Of a stretch of 64,000 nt of DNA, positions 1,583 through 63,154 are shown piece after piece. The position numbers and the translations under genes are program-made. The notes under the pieces are model-generated. The model had not been told where the DNA came from. It saw only the letters and a program-made list of their open reading frames with translations, and ran no database searches. Numbering within the stretch: the stretch's first letter is position 1; each line of letters starts with the position of its first letter. Source of the stretch: Gemmatimonadales bacterium (GTDB taxonomy: Bacteria; Gemmatimonadota; Gemmatimonadetes; Gemmatimonadales; GWC2-71-9); NCBI GenBank assembly GCA_050183505.1, contig JBFXBG010000002.1, positions 13,881 through 77,880 of the forward strand, read 5' to 3'.

Positions 1583-1720
1583 AGAGTCGAGAAGTCGAGG
1601 AGTCGAGAAGTCGAGAAGTCGAGAAGTCGAGGGTCGGGGGTCGAGGGTCGAGGGGTCGAGGGGGGCCTGGACCTCGATCCATCTCGACTCCTCGACCTCT
1701 CGACCTCTCGACTTCTTCAC
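1583..1720. repeat. inverted tandem-repeat element, 8-nt unit AGTCGAGR (about 10 copies) facing about 5 reverse-complement units (CTCGAC)
   Basis: Read directly: agtcgaga agtcgagg agtcgaga x3 ... ggcctggac ... ctcgactcctcgacctctcgacctctcgac. Lies between the NUDIX stop and the regulator promoter. Confidence 0.85.
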
Positions 1721-2316
1721 TAAACCAGCGCCCCCAGAAACCCGGTGATGATCCGCTCGGTCATGCCCCAGACGACGTTTTCGCCCACGTGATAGGCCGG
1801 GAAGGTGCGGTCTTCGCCCTGAATGCGGAGCGTGACCCCGCGGTAGATGGCAGGATCTTCCAGGTGGTCCATGGCGGCCCAGACGAGTTCGGCTACTTCG
1901 TCGCCGGCCGTCAGGTCGGGGCGGCCGGGCAGGGCGAACACGAAGGGGCGGACGAAGATGGGAGGCAGGACCCGGGTGCGGGGGGCGATGTCGTCCAGCG
2001 CGCCGAGGCACATGTCCCGGGAGAGGTGAAGCCCGACTTCCTCGAAGGTCTCCCGGATGGCCGTGGCCAGGAGGTCCGGGTCGGCGTCGTCGCGGTGGCC
2101 TCCGGGCAGGCCCATCTGCCCCGACCAGGGGTCGCCCGCGCGGGTTGCGCGGCGGATGAGCAGGACGGCGTCCGGATCGGAGCCCACCACCAGCGATACC
2201 GCCGCCGCCCGGAGGGCCGCGTCGTCGACTTCGACCGGAGATCGGATGGAAAGGGCCCGCTGAACGCGTTGCTGCAGCGAGCTCAGTGGCACCCGCACGA
2301 CCCGCCGCCGCAGCAC
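1720..2316 (-). CDS. NUDIX hydrolase (CoA pyrophosphatase-like)
   Basis: Nudix box GLPGGHRDDADPDLLATAIRETFEEVGL in the 198-aa ORF. Confidence 0.85.
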   Translation of the reverse strand: MLRRRVVRVPLSSLQQRVQRALSIRSPVEVDDAALRAAAVSLVVGSDPDAVLLIRRATRAGDPWSGQMGLPGGHRDDADPDLLATAIRETFEEVGLHLSRDMCLGALDDIAPRTRVLPPIFVRPFVFALPGRPDLTAGDEVAELVWAAMDHLEDPAIYRGVTLRIQGEDRTFPAYHVGENVVWGMTERIITGFLGALV

Positions 2317-2513
2317 CCGCCACCGTCTCCGCCGGAGGGCCCCGGGCCGGAGAAGTCGGGGGCGCCGGATCCGCCGGCCGGGCGGGCGACGACCGACAGC
2401 AGGCGCTTCACCGAGCGGGCACCGCAGGCGGGGCAGGCAGGTTTGCTGTCACCCCGGACCAGCATTTCGAAGCGCCGGTTGCAGGCGGGACAGGAGTATT
2501 CGTAGATCGGCAT
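2283..2513 (-). CDS. FmdB-family zinc-ribbon regulatory protein
   Basis: MPIYEYSCPACNRRFE...KPACPACG (two CxxC pairs) with a Gly/Cys-rich tail. Start moved to the internal ATG (residue 30 of ORF 2283..2600). Confidence 0.8.
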   Translation of the reverse strand: MPIYEYSCPACNRRFEMLVRGDSKPACPACGARSVKRLLSVVARPAGGSGAPDFSGPGPSGGDGGGCCGGGSCGCH

Positions 2514-2529
2514 GGACGGAATAGTAAGC

Positions 2530-2620
2530 AGTGAACGGTGATCGGTGAACGGGGCCGGGTTCCCGACCGGGCAGTTCGTCATGTCCGGTTCACTGTTCAC
2601 CGCTCACCGCTCACCGTCCA
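2530..2620. repeat. inverted tandem-repeat element, 7-nt unit GTGAACG (x3) facing GTTCACY/GCTCACC (x4) around a GC-rich core
   Basis: Read directly. The right arm overlaps the last codons (VSGER*) of the hydrolase gene. Confidence 0.75.
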
Positions 2621-3430
2621 TTTCACCGTCGCGTCGAACACCTGCTCCAGTTCCGGCGTCATCCCCTTGAACGGATGCACCGCTCCGAAGGTGTGGCCCG
2701 CTTCCGGGATCAGTTTCAGCGTTGCGGCCGGGTTGGCGGCGGCGAGGGCGCGGGCATCCGCGACATCGACCGACTCGTCCGCCTCGCCGTGGAGAATGAG
2801 CCAGGGGGCTTTTACGCCGGCGGCCGCACGGCGGATGTTCAGGCCGTTCCCCGCGCCCTGGGCGATATCGTCCAGTATGCCGGTGCCGAGCGGCATGACC
2901 TGACCGGTGCGGGCATTCTGAATGTTTACGTACCCGCGTCGGCGCCACGCCTCCTTGGCGGGATCGGACCAGCGGTCCACCGAGCCGATCGCGGCCCAGG
3001 TCACCAGTGTGGCGATGCCGGGATCCCGCGCCGCATGGAGGACCGCGATCCCGCCGCCCCGGGAATGTCCCACCAGGCTCACCGCGGAAGGGGCGGAGGC
3101 GCCCAGATTGCCTGATCGGAGCGCCTCCAGCACCCGGCCGAGGTCCTCCAGCTCGGCGGAATAGGTGTTCCGGCCGAAGCGTTCGGGAAACGAGAACTCG
3201 CCGGCATCGTCCACACCGCTGCCGCTGGCGTTGTAGCTCACGACCGCGAACCCGGCCCGTGCCAGCCGTTCCGCCAGCGGCGGGAACATCCCCCAGTCCT
3301 TGAACCCCTTGAACCCGTGCAGCACCACGACCGCCGGGCGGGGCCGGCCCGGCTCACCCGTCCGCAGGTCGATCAGGATCGGCCCGAGGGCGCCGGGAAG
3401 CGAACACTTCTGGAGAGTCGGAGTGGCCAT
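2597..3430 (-). CDS. alpha/beta-fold hydrolase
   Basis: Nucleophile elbow VGHSRGG, N-terminal HG oxyanion segment VVVLHGFKGF and C-terminal GHTF. Confidence 0.8.
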   Translation of the reverse strand: MATPTLQKCSLPGALGPILIDLRTGEPGRPRPAVVVLHGFKGFKDWGMFPPLAERLARAGFAVVSYNASGSGVDDAGEFSFPERFGRNTYSAELEDLGRVLEALRSGNLGASAPSAVSLVGHSRGGGIAVLHAARDPGIATLVTWAAIGSVDRWSDPAKEAWRRRGYVNIQNARTGQVMPLGTGILDDIAQGAGNGLNIRRAAAGVKAPWLILHGEADESVDVADARALAAANPAATLKLIPEAGHTFGAVHPFKGMTPELEQVFDATVKWTVSGER

Positions 3431-3433
3431 GGG

Positions 3434-3592
3434 ATGAAGGACTGAGGACTGAGGACTGAGAACTGAGGACTGAGGACTGAGGACTGACGACTGACGACTG
3501 GAGATGAGGACTGAGGACCGGGTACGTCTCGAGGGCCGAGCGTCGGGTGCTGGGAGGTCGGGCCTCAGTCCTCAGTCCTCAACCCTCAGTAC
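3434..3592. repeat. inverted tandem-repeat element, 7-nt unit ACTGAGG (about 11 copies with variants) facing CCTCAGT (about 4 copies) around a roughly 45-nt GC-rich core
   Basis: Read directly: ggactgaggactgaggactgagaactgagg ... gcctcagtcctcagtcctcaaccctcagt. Confidence 0.85.
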
Positions 3593-4554
3593 TATCTCAC
3601 CGCTCCCTCGATGATTTCCAGTTCACCGGCGGTGGCATCGAGCCGGGCCTTGACCCCGATCGGGAGGGTCCACTGGTCGTCGATGTGGCCGATGGGAAAC
3701 CCGTAGGCTACGGGAACGTTGAGCGGCAGCAGGTAGGTGGCCAGGACCTCATCGAAACCGAGGGCGCCCTCGCCGGTGCCGCGCTTCAGCTCGGTAAACC
3801 GTCCCACCGCCACGCCCGCCAGGTTCCGCAGCGCGCCGGTCATGCGAAGGTGGGCCAGCATCCGGTCCACCGAATACAGATCCTCCCCCACGTCCTCGAT
3901 GAAGAGAATGGCGCTGTCGAGGTCGGGGAAATAGCGGGTTCCGATGAGGCACTGGAGCAGGCTCAGGTTCCCGCCTTTCAGGGGTCCTTCCGCCGTGCCG
4001 GCGCGCAGGGTCACGATGCGGTCGTCCCCCGGAACCAGCACGTCGGCCGGCGGCGCGATCCGGCCCAGCTGTCCGGCCGGGTTGATCGCGGCAAGGATGC
4101 GGTCGAGGTGCCACCGGCTGAACGGGCTCAGGCTCGAGCGGCTCATGGGCCCGTGGAAGGTGACCACGCCGGTCCGTTGGTGCGCCGCGTTGAGCAGGGC
4201 GGTGATGTCGCTGAACCCGATGACGGCCCGGGGCCTGCGCTCCAGCGCCTCGAAGTCCACCCGGTCGAGAATCCGGGTGATGCCGTAGCCGCCCCGCAGG
4301 CACCAGACGGCGTCGATCCGCGGATCCCGCAGCGCCGCGTTGAGGTCGGCCACCCGCTCATCGTCGGTCCCGGCGAGATAGCCGTAGTGCCGTCCCGCGT
4401 TGGGCCCCAGCACCGGCTCGTAGCCCAGTGCGCGGCAGAGCTCTTCCCCGCGGGTCAGGTCATCCCGCTCCAGCAGCGGGCCCGCGGGTGCAACCAGCGC
4501 AACCCGGCTCCCCGGCGCCAGCCGGGGCGGACGAACGACCGTTTTTGACCCCAT
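3592..4554 (-). CDS. ldcA: LD-carboxypeptidase (peptidase S66, muramoyltetrapeptide carboxypeptidase)
   Basis: RVALVAPAGP..., nucleophile motif IGFSDITALL and the C-terminal G-HxxD region typical of S66. Confidence 0.85.
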   Translation of the reverse strand: MGSKTVVRPPRLAPGSRVALVAPAGPLLERDDLTRGEELCRALGYEPVLGPNAGRHYGYLAGTDDERVADLNAALRDPRIDAVWCLRGGYGITRILDRVDFEALERRPRAVIGFSDITALLNAAHQRTGVVTFHGPMSRSSLSPFSRWHLDRILAAINPAGQLGRIAPPADVLVPGDDRIVTLRAGTAEGPLKGGNLSLLQCLIGTRYFPDLDSAILFIEDVGEDLYSVDRMLAHLRMTGALRNLAGVAVGRFTELKRGTGEGALGFDEVLATYLLPLNVPVAYGFPIGHIDDQWTLPIGVKARLDATAGELEIIEGAVR

Positions 4555-4756
4555 CCCGCCTCCCTAGTAGTTTCCCGGCTCTGCCACAATCAGGAGTTTC
4601 ACCCTGCGCGCCTCGCATCCCGCACTTCTGGCCACGAGCCGTGCCCTGGGGGAGAGCCGTGAGGCTCTGATCACGCAATGGGCGGCCTGGCTCAACGGCC
4701 GTTCCCACGGTGTCGGCCCCGTCCCCCGGGCGACGGTCGAACGCGGCCTCCGGATC

Positions 4757-5167
4757 ATGGTCGGTGCTCTCACCGAGATGGTGGGACCCATGCGCCGCGA
4801 GGTCAAGGAAATCTGGTACAAGACCTGTGAGCACTACGGCCGCGTCAGCGCGGCACGCGGACTCGCCGCCGGGGAGGTCGTGGAGGAAATGCAGTACCTC
4901 CGCGAACTGCTCATCCGCAATCTGGCCCCGGTCTTTGCGGCCATGCGCGCGCGCCAGGGCATGGCCACCATCCTGCGCCTCAACCGCGTGCTGGATAAAG
5001 GTATCGCATCCGCGGTTGTGGGGTATACCGATGCACTGGTCGCGACCCTGTTCGCCCAGAACGGAGTCCCCAACGGGGACTCCGAAGGCGACACCGCCGA
5101 GCTCGAGAAGCAGCTGGGTGGGTTCGAGGACGAACTGGCCACGGTTACCCGGCCCAAGCCTGATTGA
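4757..5167 (+). CDS. hypothetical protein, RsbRD-N-terminal-domain-like; the true start may lie upstream
   Basis: 136-aa ORF. The same frame is open and protein-like back to 4571 (see findings). Confidence 0.55.
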   Translation: MVGALTEMVGPMRREVKEIWYKTCEHYGRVSAARGLAAGEVVEEMQYLRELLIRNLAPVFAAMRARQGMATILRLNRVLDKGIASAVVGYTDALVATLFAQNGVPNGDSEGDTAELEKQLGGFEDELATVTRPKPD

Positions 5168-5229
5168 GAGATGAGGCGTGAGGGCCGGGGCCCGTCCCCG
5201 GCACCGCCTCCGTCCTCAGTCCTCGCCAC
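5166..5229. repeat. small inverted heptamer element (NNTGAGG x2 / CCTCNNN x3) around hairpin GCCGGGG-cccgt-CCCCGGC; probable terminator
   Basis: Read directly after the stop at 5167. Confidence 0.5.
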
Positions 5230-5236
5230 TCTATTC

Positions 5237-6376
5237 ATGTCCCCATATCTCCTCGCCCTGCCCTGGTTCGCTCCCTTCCTGGCCCTGCTGCGTCTGGGCC
5301 GGCGGGAGCCCGATCTGGCACGGGAGCCGGGGGCCCGGGGGCATATGGTAAGCGTCATCATCCCCGCCCGGAACGAGTCCCGCACCATCGCGACGGTCAT
5401 CGAGTCCGTTCTGGCCACCACGTACGAGCCGTACGAGATCCTGGTCGTCGACGATCGCTCCACCGACGACACGGCGGAGATCGTGGAGCGGTTTGCCCGG
5501 AAGGACTCCCGGGTGCGGCTGATACGCGGCGGGGAGCTTCCGGCCGGCTGGTTCGGCAAGCCCTGGGCGTGCTTTCAGGGCTACCTGGAAGCGCGGGGCG
5601 AAATTCTCCTGTTCACCGACGCGGATACCCGGCACGCGCCGGAGCTGCTGGCCCGGGCGGTGGGTGGCCTGGAACGGGAGCGGGCCGGCCTGCTGACCGT
5701 CGCGCCCCGCCAGCGGTGCGACTCGTTCTGGGAACGGGTCATCATGCCGCATGTCTGGCTGCTGCTGGCCGTCCGGTACCATCCCGCACGGGTCAACCGC
5801 GCCACCCGCCCGCGGGACATCATCGCCAACGGCCAGTTCATCCTGGTCCGGCGATCCGCCTACGAACGGGTCGGCACGCACGCGGCCGTCAAGGATGAGA
5901 TCGCCGAGGATCTGGCCCTGGCCCAGCGGTTCCTGGGCGACGGCCTCAAGGTGTATTTCGCGTTCGCCGAAACGCTCATGGAAACCCGGATGTACCGCGA
6001 CCTGGGTCACATCGTTGAAGGATGGTCCAAGAACATCTTCCTCGGCGGGCGGGCATCCTTCCCCGATGAACCCGGACTCCGGATGCTGGTGCCGTTCATG
6101 CTGGGAACGGTGGGTCTGTTCTGGCTGGCCCCACCGGTCCTGCTGGCACTGGCGCTGGCGGGTTTTCACCCGGAACTCCTCCGGCCGGCTCTTGCAGCCA
6201 CCGGGCTCAGCCTCTTCTTCTGGATGTCCTTCAGCCTCGGCATGCGGATTCCTGCCCAGTATTCCCTGGCCTACCCCCTCGGCTCGGTGCTCATGATGTA
6301 TATCGTGGGCCGGTCGACCTGGCGGGGGGCCCGGAAAATCGAGTGGAAGGGGCGGGTATACGCCTATGGACGCTGA
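5237..6376 (+). CDS. family-2 glycosyltransferase with C-terminal membrane domain
   Basis: VSVIIPARNE...YEILVVDDRSTDDT...LLFTDADT (GT-A DxD) followed by several hydrophobic helices. Start placed at the second ATG, downstream of the hairpin (ORF track starts at 5171). Confidence 0.8.
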   Translation: MSPYLLALPWFAPFLALLRLGRREPDLAREPGARGHMVSVIIPARNESRTIATVIESVLATTYEPYEILVVDDRSTDDTAEIVERFARKDSRVRLIRGGELPAGWFGKPWACFQGYLEARGEILLFTDADTRHAPELLARAVGGLERERAGLLTVAPRQRCDSFWERVIMPHVWLLLAVRYHPARVNRATRPRDIIANGQFILVRRSAYERVGTHAAVKDEIAEDLALAQRFLGDGLKVYFAFAETLMETRMYRDLGHIVEGWSKNIFLGGRASFPDEPGLRMLVPFMLGTVGLFWLAPPVLLALALAGFHPELLRPALAATGLSLFFWMSFSLGMRIPAQYSLAYPLGSVLMMYIVGRSTWRGARKIEWKGRVYAYGR

Positions 6377-6490
6377 GAATACGACGATCGGGAAACCGGG
6401 TTAGATTGCAGGCAATCGCGGCAGCGCCGGATTCCGGCCGGCGCGGCAGCGGCACGCGGCGGCTTGCCATGCAATGAAGGAGCGCGGATC

Positions 6491-6742
6491 ATGAGACTCA
6501 ACCTCACCAGAGACATCCTCGAGGCCCTCGATCGGGCGGCGGACAAGCCCGACTGGCTGACCGAACGCCTGGCCCAGCTGAAGACCGGATCGGAGCCCTA
6601 CCTGCTCCAGCTCAAGGCCGAAGAAGCCACGGCCCTGGAGGAGCTCTGTGCCATGAACATCCGATTCGACGAATCGGGGAACGTCCTCCCGCAGCACAAA
6701 CCGCTGGACGAGCTGTCGCTGCAGATCATGCAGCACTATTAG
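6491..6742 (+). CDS. small hypothetical protein (83 aa)
   Basis: Balanced composition. AAGGAG lies 9 nt upstream of the ATG at 6491. No recognisable family. Confidence 0.5.
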   Translation: MRLNLTRDILEALDRAADKPDWLTERLAQLKTGSEPYLLQLKAEEATALEELCAMNIRFDESGNVLPQHKPLDELSLQIMQHY

Positions 6743-6745
6743 AAC

Positions 6746-6855
6746 GTGAGAAGTGAGAAGTGAGAAGTGAAAGGGGCGGGCTTCGGCATCGGGATGCCGA
6801 CCCGTCCTTCTTGCTTCTTCCTTCTCACTTCTCACTTCTCACCTCTCACCTCACT
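6746..6855. repeat. inverted tandem-repeat element, 7-nt unit GTGAGAA (x4) facing TTCTCAC/TTCTTSC (x7) around hairpin CGGCATC-ggg-GATGCCG; lies between convergent genes
   Basis: Read directly. The right arm overlaps the stop of the kinase gene. Confidence 0.85.
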
Positions 6856-8962
6856 CCCTCCCCAGCACTTCCCGCACTTTCTTCCCGAATTCCTCGCTGG
6901 TCCACGGTTTCTGGATGAACGGCGCGTCCGGCAGGCCGGCCTGGCCGCCGGCGGACGCGTCTCCCCGGGAATAACCGCTGGTGAACAGGAATCGCGCTCG
7001 GCTCCCTTCGCTCTGAAGGGCCTCGTAGAGTGCGCGGCCCCCTACCCGAGGCATGATCACGTCGGAGATCACCAGATCGATCCGGTCCTGGTTGCGGCGG
7101 AAGAGATCCAGGGCTTCCTCGCCGTCCCGGGCCAGCAGGACCGTGTAGCCCAGGTGCTCCAGCAGCCGCCGAGCGGCCCGGCGGAGCGGTTCCTCATCCT
7201 CCACCAGCAGGATCGTCTCCCGGCCACGGACGAGGGCGGCCGGCGCGGCCCCGGCCCGGGCCGGCGGTACGGGTGCCACCATCGATTCGTCCCAGACCGG
7301 CAGGTAGATCGTGACCGCGGTGCCCTCGCCGGGTACGCTGTCGACTTCGATGGAGCCTTCATGCTGTTTGACCAGACCGTAGACCATCGCCATGCCGAGG
7401 CCGGTTCCTTCGGCCGGCGGTTTGGTGGTGAAGAAGGGCTCGAAGACCCGGGCCCGGACATCCTCGCTCATCCCAAGCCCGGTGTCACGGATCTCGAGCC
7501 GGACGTAGTCGCCCTCGGTGATCCAGGGCTGGGCCGCGCTCCTGGCCAGATGCTGCCGCCGGCCGGACATGACCAGCAGCCCGGTACCCTGCATCGCGTC
7601 CCGGGCGTTGGTGGCGAGGTTCAGGATGATCTGTTCCAGGGCGAGGGTGTCTCCGCGGATGAGCAGCGGCTCCGCCGGCAGTTCAAGTCGCACCTCCACG
7701 CCCGCCGGAAGCAGCCGGCGGAGCGTGCCGCTCAGTTCTCGAAGGTGAACTCCCAGATCCACGGTCTGAAAGGTGAGTGTGGCGCTGCGGCTGAAACTCA
7801 GGAGCTTCCGGATCATCGCGGCGCCGCGGCGACAGGAGTTGCGCAGTTCCTCGATGTCCTCCTGGAGTTCTGTCCGGTCCGCCGGCAGCGCCTGGGCGAT
7901 CAGGTCCGCGTGGGCCAGAACCACGGTGAGGATGTTGTTCAGATCGTGGGCGATCCCCCCGGTGAGCTGCCCAACCGCCTCCATCTTCTGAACCTGGCGG
8001 AGATGGGTCTCGACGGCCCGGCGCTCGGTAACGTCCCGCAGAATCGCCTGCACAGTACCGTCCTCCAGCCCGGCGGAGGTCACCTCGACCGGAAGCACGT
8101 TCCCGTCCGCCCGGTGCAGCCGGAGCTCCACCAGCTGCAGCCGGTTGCTGCGCAGGTCGTCCATGCCGACCGACCGGGCGGGGTCTTCCCGGGTCAGCAG
8201 GCCGGTCAACGGTTGCCCCAGGATCGACGCCCGGTCCGCGCCCACCAGCCGGCAGGCCCGGGTATTCGCCTCCAGGATGGTGCCGTCGGCCCCGGCCACG
8301 AAGATCGGGTCCGAGGCCTCGGCCAGCAGGGTCCGGTACCGCCGCTCGGAAGCGGCCAGAATATCTCCCAGGTGCTGCCGCTCGGTGATATCGTGGATGA
8401 CACAGTACAGGCATGGCCGGCCGCCGATCCGGATCGGGGTCAGGTCCATGGCCACCTCGCGCTCCACGCCTGACGCCGTCCGCTGGCGCGTGACAAAGAA
8501 GCTGTGCCCCTCCGCCGCGGCCTGATCCCAGGCCCGGTCCGGCCCCTCCCCCTGCATCGTGTTGATCTCACCGATCGGCATGCCCACCAGTTTCGAATCC
8601 GGCCAGCCATAGAACGCAATCGCCGACGGATTCGCCTCCAGCACCCGGCCGCTCTCACGGTCTATGACCAGAATCGCGGCCGAGGAGTCCCGGAAGATCT
8701 GCTGGTAGCGTGATTCGCTCTCCTGCCGCGCCGCCTCCGATGACTGCACCACCCGCTGGCCGGCCCGCACCAGGCCGTAGACCAGCGAGGCGGTAACCAG
8801 GATGAACAGGAAGCCCTTCAGCGTCTGTTCGTGAGACAGCTGCTCGGCGGTGAGCTCGCCGTTCGACAGGATGAGCAGGAGACGATCCGAAAAGAAGATC
8901 CACGCCGCCCCACAGAACGCATAAATGACGGATATGCCGAAGGGCGTGAGCAGACGTCGCAT
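6851..8962 (-). CDS. PAS-domain hybrid sensor histidine kinase (2 TM, PAS x2, HisKA, HATPase, C-terminal receiver)
   Basis: H-box [16 protein letters not shown] boxes ([21 protein letters not shown]) and receiver ILLVEDEE...[10 protein letters not shown]. Start set at MRRLLTPFG (residue 85 of the ORF), which avoids overlap with the divergent gene. Confidence 0.85.
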
Positions 8963-9194
8963 CGGGTGGGGATGTCCGGGGACGGGGGTGTGGGGGCGAC
9001 TGGAATGTACCCCACGGCCGGTGGCTGTCAAAAGACCCTCGGCCAAGGGCGTTCGACAATACCACCGGATTGCTCGAGCCACCATGAAGGAATCATGAGG
9101 GCCGCGCTCGCGTTTCCTGGATACGCCGGGCATCGGAATGGTTCCCAGATGCCGGCCGGACCGGCCTACCATGGCTCCCTCGTGAAGGGAGACC

Positions 9195-12100
9195 ATGACG
9201 CTCGACGACATCATCCGGTCGATCAGGACGCTGAAGGACGTGCCCCGGCTGTTTCAGGCACTGGGCGCCACCCCTCGATGGGAACCGGTACCGCCGTCCT
9301 TCTGGGGGGAGAATCGGGCGGCCCTGACAAGCCTCGACCGTACCGCGCTCATTGCCAGGACCGGCGCTCTCGACTGGTACGGCTGCGAAACCCGGGACCC
9401 GCCGGCCGTCTCCCGTATCCTCGCCCGGCGGCTGTTGCGCCACGGGATACCGGCGGGAGTGGTCTGCCTGGATCGTCGCCGGGGACAGCTCGCGTTATCG
9501 GTCGCGTTCACCGAGGCGCCCGTCCTGGCTCTTTCGCCGGGGGAAACGGACCGGGTCACCATCGCCCTGCTCCATCGTCTCGGCACGATCGCTCTCGGCG
9601 GGGCACTGGCCACCGCGGCAAGAGTAGCGGAGATCCTGGCCGGGGAAGGAGTGGGGAAGCGGTTCTTCCGGAGCTTTGGGCTCGCGCTCGATCGGATGAG
9701 CGATGGGATCACCGGCGTCCGCCGGCCGGCCGACCGGCGCCCTCTGGCCCTGCTGCAGCTCACCCGTGTCCTGTTCCTCTATTTCGTTCAGTCCAGAGGG
9801 TGGCTGGACGGGCAGACCGGTTTTCTCCGGGCCCGGCTCGACGATTGCCTGGCCCGCGGCCGCCGGGTTCACCGGGATCTGCTCCGACCGCTCTTCTTCG
9901 GGACGCTGAACCAGCCGGCGGGGGCACGCTCCCGGCTGGCCCGCTCATTCGGGCGCATCCCGTTTCTCAACGGAGGGCTGTTCGAACCGCACCGGTTGGA
10001 GCGCAGCTGGACGGGGAGCATCCCGAACCGGCTCTGGCGGGACGTCTTCGACGGACTGTTCGAACGCTTCGAGTTCACCGTGCGCGAAGGAATGCCCGGG
10101 CCCGCCATCGCGCCGGACATGCTCGGCCGGGTTTTTGAAGGCCTCATGCACGCCGGTGAGCGGCACCGTACCGGTACCTTCTACACGCCGCCGGCTCTGG
10201 TAGACACGCTCGTCGGCGCCGGCATCGCCGCGCTGGTTTCCTCCCGGGAGGAATGTTCCTTCGAGGCGGCTCGGGAACGGCTCGACCGGGCAGACCCTGG
10301 CCTCCTGCCATTGCTGCGTGCCATTACGGTCCTCGACCCGGCGGTCGGGTCCGGCGCGTTCCTGCTCGGCACCATGGAAACGCTGGTGGCACTGCGGCGG
10401 CGGATGGCGCCCGGGGAATCCGACCTTCGCCGGAGCATCCTGAGCCGCAACCTGTTCGGCGTGGATCTCAACCCCACGGCGGTCCAGCTCACCGAGCTTC
10501 GGCTCTGGCTCGCCGTCGTGAGTGATGATCCGGAAGATGTGGAGCAGGTGAGACCGCTCCCCAACCTGGACAGCCAGATCCGCCAGGGAGACTCGCTCCA
10601 CGATCCGCTCGGCGCGCTGGCCGGTCTCGTCCTCCGGCCCCAGCTCGCGGGGCCGGCGCTGGGGCGCCTGCGTCGCCGGTTTGCGACGGTCTCGGGCCGA
10701 GAGAAAGCCCGCACCGCGCACCGGCTGCGGGAGCTGGAACAGGCCGCAGTGCGGGAGTGTCTCGACCAGGTCGAGGCCGCGCTGGACCGTCGGATCCGGC
10801 AATGGCTCGCGGCGGCCCGGGATCCGGACCTCTTCGGCGACACCAGGAAACCGGATCGGGGCGCGCGGACCAGGCTTCGCGCGCTTCGGGAGTCCCGGCG
10901 GCAGGTGCGCGGCGCCCGCCGCCGGCTGCAGCGGGACGGAACGGTACCCTGGTTTCAGTACGAGGCCCACTTCGGAGAGATCTTCGCCGCCGGCGGATTC
11001 GAGCTGGTCACTGGCAACCCGCCCTGGGTCCGGGCTGAAGACCTCACGCCAGCGGAACGTGACCGCCTGGGCCGCAGATACGCCTGGTGGCGGACGGACC
11101 ACGGCCGGGGGTTCCGTCATCAGCCCGACCTGGCGATCGCGTTTCTCCAGCGTGCGACCGAACTCGCCGCCCCGGGCGGCGCGGTCGCGCTGCTGATGCC
11201 GGCCAAGCTGGCCACCGCCGGCTATGCCGCACCGGCCCGACGGGCGCTGGTCGCCGAGCACACGTTGCACGTCGCGGCCGACCTGACCCGGACCGGGGCG
11301 GCGCAGTTCCAGGCCACGGCCTATCCCATGGCCGTGGTGTCCTCCCGGAGAGCCCCTCACCGGCAGAACCGGGTCCGCACATCCCTGGATGAAGACCAGA
11401 GCACCCCGCAACGCCTGCTGACCCAGGGCCCCTGGATGCTCCGGGGCGACACACTCGCCCGGGCCCTGAGCCGGATGTCGGAGGGGCATGCCTGCGTGGG
11501 CGATCACTTCGGGATTCATCTCGGGATCAAGACCGGCGCCAATGACGTCTTCCTGGACCCGCCCGCCGGGATTGAACCGGACCTGATCCGGCCGGCGCTG
11601 CGGGGGCGCGACATCCGTCCGTTCGTCATCCGCCCGGGCAGCCGGATTCTCTGGACCCACGACGACCAGGGACTACCGCTGCGATCTCTGCCGCCCGCGG
11701 CCAGGGCCTACCTCACCTCCCGGCGCGGACGGCTGGAACGCCGTTCCGACCTGAACGGCGAAGCCTGGTGGACCCTCTTCCGGATCCCCGGCTCCACCCC
11801 GTCTCCCCGGGTGGTGTGGCGGGATCTTGCCGCGAGGCTGGAGGCGGCCGCGCTGCTTGGCCCGGACACCCGGCCGATCGTTCCGCTCAACACCTGTTAC
11901 GTGATCATCCTCGAGCAGGAAACCGTGGCGGCGCGGATCGCCGCCTGGCTCAACTGCACCTGGGTGCGGGCCGCCGCCATCGCGGGAGCGGATCCGGCCA
12001 GGGGTGGATATGCCCGCTTCAACGCAGCCGTTGTGGCCGCGCTTCCGCTCCCGGGCGGAGTGCTGGAAGACGACGCGCTCTCCGAGTTCTGCCGGAGTTC

Positions 12101-58892: not shown

Positions 58893-58952
58893 CCACCTGC
58901 CCCCACCTGCCCACACATGCCCCCACCTGCCCTCACCTCCCCTACGCCGCCC
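58893..58952. repeat. one-armed tandem array, 10-nt unit CCACCTGCCC (6 degenerate copies)
   Basis: ccacctgccc ccacctgccc acacatgccc ccacctgccc tcacctcccc tacgccgccc. The last units overlap the 3' end of the GT4 gene. Confidence 0.7.
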
Positions 58953-63055: not shown

Positions 63056-63154
63056 CCAATCCCCCAGCCCTCAATCCCCTCAATCCCTCAATCCCTCAAT
63101 CCCCCAATCCCCTCAATCCCTCAATCCCCTCAATCCCCTCAATCCCTCAATCCC
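63056..63154. repeat. one-armed tandem array, 8/9-nt unit CTCAATCC(C), about 11 copies
   Basis: Read directly, immediately after the hydrolase stop. Confidence 0.85.

Follow-up and report, generated by a model that had tools for sequence, protein, structure and literature searches.

Gene-end hairpins with inverted tandem-array arms in a Gemmatimonadales genome: probable selfish insertions built like PF05635 cassettes

The first 7 kb of a 64,000-nt contig stretch from a Gemmatimonadales bacterium (GCA_050183505.1, contig JBFXBG010000002.1; hereafter the window, in which all element coordinates are given) contain five intergenic loci, elements 1 to 5, each with short tandem units on one side of a core and the reverse-complement units on the other. 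We propose that these loci are probably gene-less members of a genome-wide population of hairpins built like the cassettes that carry PF05635 genes, and that they are selfish or near-neutral insertions. PF05635 (TIGR02436) is the 23S-rRNA-IVS or XCC0516-type four-helix-bundle family, whose S23p 'intervening-sequence protein' has been known for decades; the cassettes found here would be the non-rRNA counterparts of the intervening sequences (IVS) of 23S rRNA that bear an open reading frame (ORF). What is new in this genome is the many unit families, their unusual density, a one-gene-one-unit pattern and a host class in which RNase III is apparently missing.

Arrays were called with Tandem Repeats Finder (TRF), and predicted folding energies were compared with 200 dinucleotide shuffles per element. 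At four of the five loci the inverted tandem arrays are clear and flank a GC-rich core, and TRF called both arms (Table 1). The design that a first-pass annotation had assigned to all five is weak at element 4, where TRF called no array and only ~3 degenerate units stand on each side. The five cores measure 20-45 nt. The long stem-loops proposed for each locus are borne out by folds of -79.9 kcal/mol (z -6.4) for element 1, -48.5 (z -4.9) for element 2, -64.1 (z -5.6) for element 3, -37.3 (z -3.3) for element 4 and -66.3 / -68.5 (z -9.4 / -8.9) for element 5; no shuffle folded as well, save 1/200 for element 4. An Rfam search of the elements returned only sub-threshold generic hairpin (miRNA-precursor) matches. 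The arms are indeed unequal, as in element 3 (11.7 versus 4.0 copies).

The placement at gene 3' ends or between convergent genes also stands: all five elements touch a stop codon, with elements 1-4 between same-strand genes and element 5 between convergent genes. The right arm of element 1 reaches gene 1720-2316(-) at its stop codon, a minus-strand TAG at 1720-1722, and that of element 2 overlaps the 3' end of a hydrolase gene, 2597-3430(-). Element 3 comes within 7 nt of the ATG of the same hydrolase gene; on its other side, 1 nt separates it from gene 3592-4554(-), whose stop is at 3592-3594. Element 4 sits between a stop at 5165-5167 and the next gene, and element 5 runs from the stop (6740-6742) of gene 6464-6742(+) to that of the convergent gene 6851-9214(-), at 6851-6853. 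All five lie between protein genes, and none in helix 25 or 45 of 23S rRNA.

These loci belong to a much larger population. In the source genome (G000; 4.11 Mb in 278 contigs, 68% G+C, 94% complete) we counted 1426 arrays with three or more copies of a 7-9-nt unit, and 193 strict pairs, that is, inverted arrays around a core. In these pairs the core has a median length of 42 nt, and the median arm contains 4.4-4.5 units. The density of 35 arrays per 100 kb compares with 4, 5, 11 and 16 in 100-kb samples of four relatives with similar G+C, which hold 0-1 strict pairs. Base composition is therefore not the source of the arrays. The first-pass annotation had stressed that the unit differs at every locus; this is true within the 7 kb, but genome-wide the units recur. 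Forty-four unit types account for 1083 of 1342 oriented arrays and fall into nine groups whose members are linked by single substitutions or indels, and three of the five window units (AGTCGAGA, GTGAACG and GTGAGAA) form one mutationally connected group. Close neighbours share a unit family in 6 of 27 cases (4.2 expected), indicating neither local clustering nor avoidance. Neighbouring elements are thus independent draws, and five different units in a row are unremarkable. Cores of the same family are mostly unrelated, and 88% of all cores are unique; a shared core motif was rejected as a general feature, as GGCYGG...CCRGCC occurs in just 11 of the 193.

The geometry of the population is strict. 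Whichever strand is read, the purine-rich arm comes first in 193/193 strict pairs, and adjacent arrays run purine-then-pyrimidine 295 times versus 13 in the reverse order, such that the purine strand runs 5' to 3' from the flanking gene into the spacer regardless of gene orientation. Purine-to-pyrimidine neighbours match as reverse complements in 185 cases versus 31 ± 5 expected. The other 110 of the 295 combine unrelated units unable to form a stem, and since the polarity holds in these too it is not a by-product of hairpin formation. At stops, arrays are sense-purine in 485 cases versus 120 sense-pyrimidine; for single arrays the G-rich/purine strand is sense in 228 versus 43, and before starts the bias is reversed (91 sense-pyrimidine versus 29). 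Arrays begin -2 to +5 nt from the stop, arms start a median of 2-3 nt from gene ends, and pairs fill ~90% of their spacer. About half of the pairs lie in same-strand spacers, while convergent spacers are enriched for pairs (62/133 versus 13% of all spacers) and divergent spacers are depleted of them (7).

Two properties of the units suggest how this orientation might be filtered. Three-frame stop codons occur in 594/1342 purine strands versus 52/1342 pyrimidine strands, and ATG or GTG in 455/1342 versus 15/1342. The purine strand, with its stops, GTG and Shine-Dalgarno-like words, would be tolerated only after stop codons, and the pyrimidine strand, almost free of such signals, would be tolerated in front of start codons.

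The connection with PF05635 comes from genes that are enclosed by such arrays, in the order purine array, gene, pyrimidine array. The genome has seven PF05635/TIGR02436 four-helix-bundle genes and 7/7 are enclosed by an array hairpin, against a background of 7/2520 genes of the genome. Their arm units are AGTCGAGA, CCGGGTG, a GACGG type, AGGACTG, AGTGAGA, CAGTGAG and TGAGGGAT, and three of the seven recur in window elements 1, 3 and 5, the genes on C39, C90 and C9 having AGTCGAGA, ACTGAGG and GTGAGAA arms; the unit of element 2 reappears as the GTGAACG-type arms of a PF05635 gene in the relative G124. These cassettes, of roughly 450 nt, are the exception to a lack of polarity at long range: long-range matched pairs otherwise show none (20 vs 14), and the idea that arrays form the ends of larger composite transposons was rejected accordingly. 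Among ten relatives, array-poor genomes included, 22/30 PF05635 genes are enclosed, plus ~10/13 more, each with its own unit.

Units and proteins covary among close relatives. A maximum-likelihood tree contains a supported clade of ten PF05635 genes, all with GGCGG/GCGGG 8-9-mers, and a supported clade of five from four genomes, all with GTGAG-like 7-mers (1 and 5 of 5000 permutations, for clades picked after the tree was seen). Likewise, units are more alike where the two proteins are less than p = 0.5 apart (2.59 vs 3.27; 2 of 5000). A cross-phylum scan with one query protein against species-representative genomes gave 80 PF05635 loci in at least 12 phyla, a sample biased to one clade: a tandem array lies within 450 nt of 74/80, and arrays strictly enclose 33/80, in 32 cases with period 7; most units are of AGCTNNN type. 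Units are conserved within clades at ~50% protein identity and across phyla. Arrays of AGCTAAC give 207 pattern hits on at least 30 contigs of G138, which carries an AGCTAAC-armed gene, and zero hits in eight other genomes. The PDB homologue, the pentamer 2GSC (E 1e-21), is the Xanthomonas campestris protein XCC0516, and GGGAATC repeat #15 of that species overlaps its start codon (table in PMC4692102). A different cargo is found in G000 at C142:3120-3800, where a GTGAGAA-armed hairpin encloses an ORF of ~158-189 aa with no Pfam match.

Element 3 is an insertion. It lies at the junction of an LD-carboxypeptidase-like gene and the hydrolase gene, and in four relatives of the same family (proteins 63-75% identical) the same two genes are 2-30 nt apart or overlap, with the element absent. 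Its 160 nt, core included, are therefore lineage-specific DNA, an insertion into an ancestral 2-30-nt operon junction rather than growth around an old terminator. Of the local origin proposed at first pass, by slippage or templated addition around a terminator hairpin, the slippage survives (see below) and the ancestral terminator does not. The flanking hydrolase has no homologue above 67% identity in the protein collection, and the genus contains no other genome. The element fills the whole spacer (3431-3594), and the downstream hydrolase gene has neither promoter room nor an obvious Shine-Dalgarno sequence.

Element presence turns over rapidly. We compared the window with a sister lineage ~94% identical (~6% diverged), represented by contigs from five runs of four studies (sludge, biogas). 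There, element 1 is replaced by 88 other letters, the first 30 of which were read and are non-repetitive; of element 3 the left array alone is kept, 3483-3591 being replaced by CGG; and element 5 is intact and gap-free (X6 contig 6455-6852). The core of element 2 is an indel hot spot, and its indels, like those in the core of element 4, vary among sludge strains. Presence and absence thus change between lineages ~6% apart. Slippage between strains, foreseen at first pass, is also seen as whole-unit differences: an extra CCTCAGT (+7 nt) follows position 5206 in run X4 and is missing from X6, from the same sample, and on contig 21 one arm is 48 nt (6 units) shorter in the sister lineage at a first locus and 7 nt shorter, in one run only, at a second. 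Two observations on these data stand apart. A 38-nt stretch of the window (6416-6455), upstream of the small gene 6464-6742, is missing from the sister lineage in four runs. Run X5 is the only one labelled RNA-Seq; its contigs reach 216 kb and are collinear with 6 kb of the window, so that it behaves as DNA and gives no transcript evidence.

Copying of entire elements also occurs. Second copies elsewhere in the genome were found for 19/161 cores (12%): the core CGCCCGCACGGATCCCGATGGGCAG, with GGGATTGA arms, is present at four unlinked loci with unrelated flanks and differing copy numbers, and another recurring core is found in both orientations. Whole elements are thus sometimes copied, a point on which the earlier argument from differing units is incomplete. 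Once formed, the two arms evolve independently, since left and right copy numbers are uncorrelated (rho 0.03) and variant units in one arm are not mirrored in the other. In the left array of element 1 the 8-nt AGTCGAGR shortens to the 7-nt GTCGAGG nearer the core, indicating that a unit mutated and was then amplified in place.

These results show elements that consist of tandem 7-9-nt units, a core that varies and tandem reverse-complement units, and that are inserted at gene boundaries, a minority being copied whole to unlinked loci. After that each arm gains or loses whole units independently. In the model that we draw from this, orientation would be filtered by coding signals, and the elements would behave as selfish or near-neutral DNA. 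Their transcripts would form stems of 25-40 bp, either between cistrons or at the 3' ends of mRNAs. Comparable stems are RNase III substrates in other bacteria. Yet no RNase III domain (PF14622, PF00636) was found in the source genome, in 13 further Gemmatimonadales or in ~105 sampled genomes of the class Gemmatimonadetes, in which one family has the domain, and a tblastn search of G000 with E. coli Rnc and the ERLEFLGD motif gave zero matches. RNase III is present in 14/14 sampled genomes of other classes of the phylum. These searches point to an apparent class-wide loss. With no detectable RNase III, the stems would escape the cleavage that IVS stems undergo, and may persist as blocks at transcript ends, in the role of stabilisers or terminator-like pauses.

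Several results weigh against this interpretation. With respect to mobility, we saw no copying event in progress and no mobilising enzyme for the elements, no target duplication either at the junction that holds element 3 or in the family with four loci, and the great majority of cores are unique. Of the features of MITEs, which are miniature transposable elements with inverted repeats, the inverted arms are present; there is no target-site duplication at the loci examined and no transposase. With respect to PF05635, gene-less cores showed no similarity to the interiors of gene-bearing cassettes above shuffled controls, so that a MITE-like origin by deletion is not supported, and the idea that gene-less cores are deletion derivatives was dropped. 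For two large families, ATGATTGG and ACGGCCAGG, the 94%-complete assembly contains no copy with a gene, and the relatives G012 and G103 have GTGAGAA arrays and no GTGAG-armed PF05635 gene among the genes examined. A global Mantel test of protein against unit distance was weak (r 0.065, then 0.10 with 357/5000 permutations), neither value being significant; significance was reached only in the tests on clades and on close protein pairs. Moreover, 199/485 stop-adjacent purine arrays lack any stop codon, and the coding-signal filter is therefore not the whole reason for the polarity. Finally, only element 5 resembles a classical terminator. Reverse transcription was also considered as the source of the repeats and ruled out, as the genome has no RVT_1 domain.

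A bolder extension, which we put forward tentatively, is that each PF05635 pentamer is the unit-specific cognate partner of one hairpin family, the gene-bearing cassette being the full element and the hundreds of gene-less hairpins its satellites. By binding the 7-9-nt unit of its own family, in DNA or in RNA form, the pentamer would keep the arrays in being, shield them or help them spread; the class Gemmatimonadetes, having lost RNase III, would lack the enzyme that cuts such stems, which would have let the satellites bloom at mRNA ends.

A related alternative holds that the arrays are primarily binding sites for sequence-specific proteins, either global regulators or PF05635 pentamers, that selection for binding preserves the units, and that the hairpin is secondary. 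The conservation of units within PF05635 clades and across phyla, the fact that every PF05635 gene has its own unit and the genome-specific blooms that match the resident arm type would all fit, and paired tandem sites in Geobacter have been interpreted in this way (PMC2700814). However, about nine unit groups would require about nine specificities, and shared descent of gene and arms explains part of the covariation. Together with the arrays of G012 and G103 that lack a matching gene and the weak Mantel test, these points leave us doubtful of this alternative.

We consider it unlikely that the elements are adaptive, locally grown bidirectional terminators or RNA stabilisers, in which slippage extended both sides of an old hairpin and selection keeps the stem. 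Their enrichment at 3' ends and between convergent genes, the very stable predicted stems and the slippage polymorphism are what such a process would leave. By established hybrid-stability rules, the RNA:DNA hybrid at pyrimidine-rich 3' arms would also be weak whichever way transcription runs, and the core of element 5 with its T-rich arm fits the terminator pattern; a terminator consensus scan flagged this core alone among the five elements, with a count no higher than in shuffles. In contrast, element 3 is new, core included, in an operon junction with no promoter room downstream, and about half of the pairs fill same-strand spacers. The uncorrelated arm lengths indicate that stem length is not maintained, and the polarity extends to the 110 non-matching pairs that cannot form a stem. 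The recurrence of units in families and across genera is unexpected under a local origin, and two of the five elements are dispensable in the ~6% diverged lineage.

Formation of G-quadruplexes, as proposed for Xanthomonas and Nostoc, is highly improbable: the placement rule is the same and the GGGATTGA family could form them, but AGTCGAGR, GTGAACG, ACTGAGG, GTGAGAA and most large families have no GGG runs. An assembly artefact of a fragmented metagenome bin can be set aside almost entirely, for although short-read contigs break inside arrays and the copy numbers of the longest could be off, independent sister-lineage contigs from the five runs of four other studies span elements 2, 4 and 5 as well as other loci, and relatives with near-complete genomes show this architecture too.

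The claim that this repeat class had not been recognised needs qualification, since parts of it are in print. Rehm et al. 2015 (PMC4692102) described heptameric G-rich repeats, GGGAATC in Xanthomonas campestris/citri and GGGGAYT in Nostoc: intergenic tandem 7-nt units, typically in ~4 copies, under-represented between divergent genes, with the G-rich strand sense within 50 bp after stops and antisense before starts. Each genome has 70-75 convergent pairs able to form stem-loops; the repeats are not at the same genes in close species, no function was found, and G-quadruplexes were proposed. Our arrays share with these simple sequence repeats the intergenic tandem units of ~7 nt in at least ~4 copies, the placement rule, and convergent opposite-strand pairs, of which there are 193 here. 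They differ in having many unit families of 7, 8 and 9 nt in place of one unit, in their higher density, and in that G-quadruplexes are out of reach for the majority of units (GGG is missing from four of the five in the window); PMC4692102 draws no link to PF05635.

The closest gene-bearing precedent is the 23S IVS of Coxiella burnetii (Warrier et al. 2016, PMC4990558), an S23p ORF with a 28-bp terminal stem, regarded as selfish, which contains GACAGAT heptamers in 2-3 copies by strain and is cut in the stem by RNase III; ORF-bearing IVS also occur in Leptospira (PMC4990558). A long terminal-inverted-repeat stem with tandem heptamers and strain-variable copy number is common to both systems. 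The PF05635-family ORF in the loop is shared by the seven gene-bearing copies only, whereas the five window elements have no ORF and lie outside rRNA, and RNase III, which cuts the IVS stem, is undetectable in this class. Aklujkar et al. 2009 (PMC2700814) listed paired tandem-repeat sites of classes 1-3 in Geobacter metallireducens. These resemble our elements in having 3-5 tandem 7-9-nt units on opposite strands at variable distance and at dozens of intergenic loci; the units differ, and the sites were annotated as regulator binding sites, with hairpin, polarity and gene cargo not analysed. The cyanobacterial short tandemly repeated repetitive sequences (Mazel et al. 1990, as cited in PMC4692102) are intergenic tandem heptamers of patchy distribution, and the Beggiatoaceae TAACTGA repeats (PMC4679880) are intergenic tandem heptamers, likewise patchy in distribution, with arrays adjoining start codons. 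Unlike in our elements, most of these arrays are direct; one indirect repeat has been reported, and no hairpin architecture is described. In the literature we found no description of such elements in Gemmatimonadota, and nothing apart from the one Coxiella IVS that ties PF05635 to repeats of this kind.

Two better known classes could be eliminated, as the first-pass annotation had anticipated. Repetitive extragenic palindromic (REP) sequences and bacterial interspersed mosaic elements, with their REP-associated tyrosine transposase (RAYT), are likewise multicopy intergenic palindromes at 3' ends, near-identical and imperfect, of 20-40 nt, but the arms here are tandem arrays that vary in copy number, and the cores differ and are mostly unique. 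The genome has two Y1-transposase (PF01797, RAYT/IS200-like) loci, C26:21337-21681, with an in-frame TGA, and C12:42809-43149, which is split. Both sit among their own classical REP-like palindromes (22 copies on C26 and 3 on C12) and no 7-8-nt arrays adjoin them; membership of a RAYT/REP family is therefore ruled out. CRISPR arrays are excluded because the units are 7-9 nt and directly tandem, versus 24-48-nt repeats with unique spacers.

The remaining features of the window are given with the elements in Table 1. The heptamer array of element 2 (2597-2616) encodes the last codons and the TGA stop of hydrolase gene 2597-3430(-), and the (CAATCCCT)x12 array after a stop at 63057-63154 is in the 'wrong' (sense-pyrimidine) orientation.

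Table 1. Inverted-array elements and further arrays in the 64,000-nt window
Feature	Position	Unit and copies	Basis or remark
Element 1 left arm, purine-rich	1584-1661	8 nt x10.1, AGTCGAGR	TRF + sequence
Element 1 core/loop	1662-1681		fold
Element 1 right arm, pyrimidine-rich	1682-1719	TCTCGACY x~4.4	TRF span 1682-1716
Element 2 left arm, purine-rich	2531-2552	GTGAACG x3.1	TRF
Element 2 core, GC-rich	2553-2596		fold
Element 2 right arm, pyrimidine-rich	2597-2616	TCACCGC x2.9	TRF
Element 3 left arm, purine-rich on + strand	3438-3518	AGGACTG x11.7	TRF
Element 3 core	3519-3562		fold
Element 3 right arm, pyrimidine-rich	3563-3590	CCTCAGT x4.0	TRF
Element 4, weak member	5162-5226	~3 degenerate NNTGAGG, CCGGGG...CCCCGG hairpin, ~3 CCTCNNN	
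Element 5 left arm, purine-rich	6741-6770	GTGAGAA x4.1 (TRF AGAAGTG)	TRF
Element 5 core hairpin, GC-rich	6771-6804	GGCATCGGGATGCC	fold + terminator scan
Element 5 right arm, pyrimidine-rich	6805-6850	CTTCTCA-type units, x4-6	TRF span 6805-6849
Further single array, same population	58893-58942	CCACCTGCCC x5, 10-nt unit, sense-purine	directly after minus-strand stop
Further single array	63057-63154	CAATCCCT x12 (GGGATTGA family)	13 nt after stop codon

In practical terms, elements of this kind fragment short-read assemblies, supply stop codons, shift gene ends and are fast strain markers. Independently of the repeats, the apparent class-wide loss of RNase III offers a lead on the handling of double-stranded RNA in these bacteria. 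The tandem heptamers at gene ends of Xanthomonas, cyanobacteria, Geobacter and Beggiatoaceae on the one hand, and the PF05635 proteins on the other, are joined here in one genome, such that two vague puzzles become one question: does the pentamer recognise its own repeat? If it did, the 23S IVS proteins, the Xanthomonas GGGAATC repeats, the Geobacter sites and possibly the cyanobacterial heptamers would be tied together.

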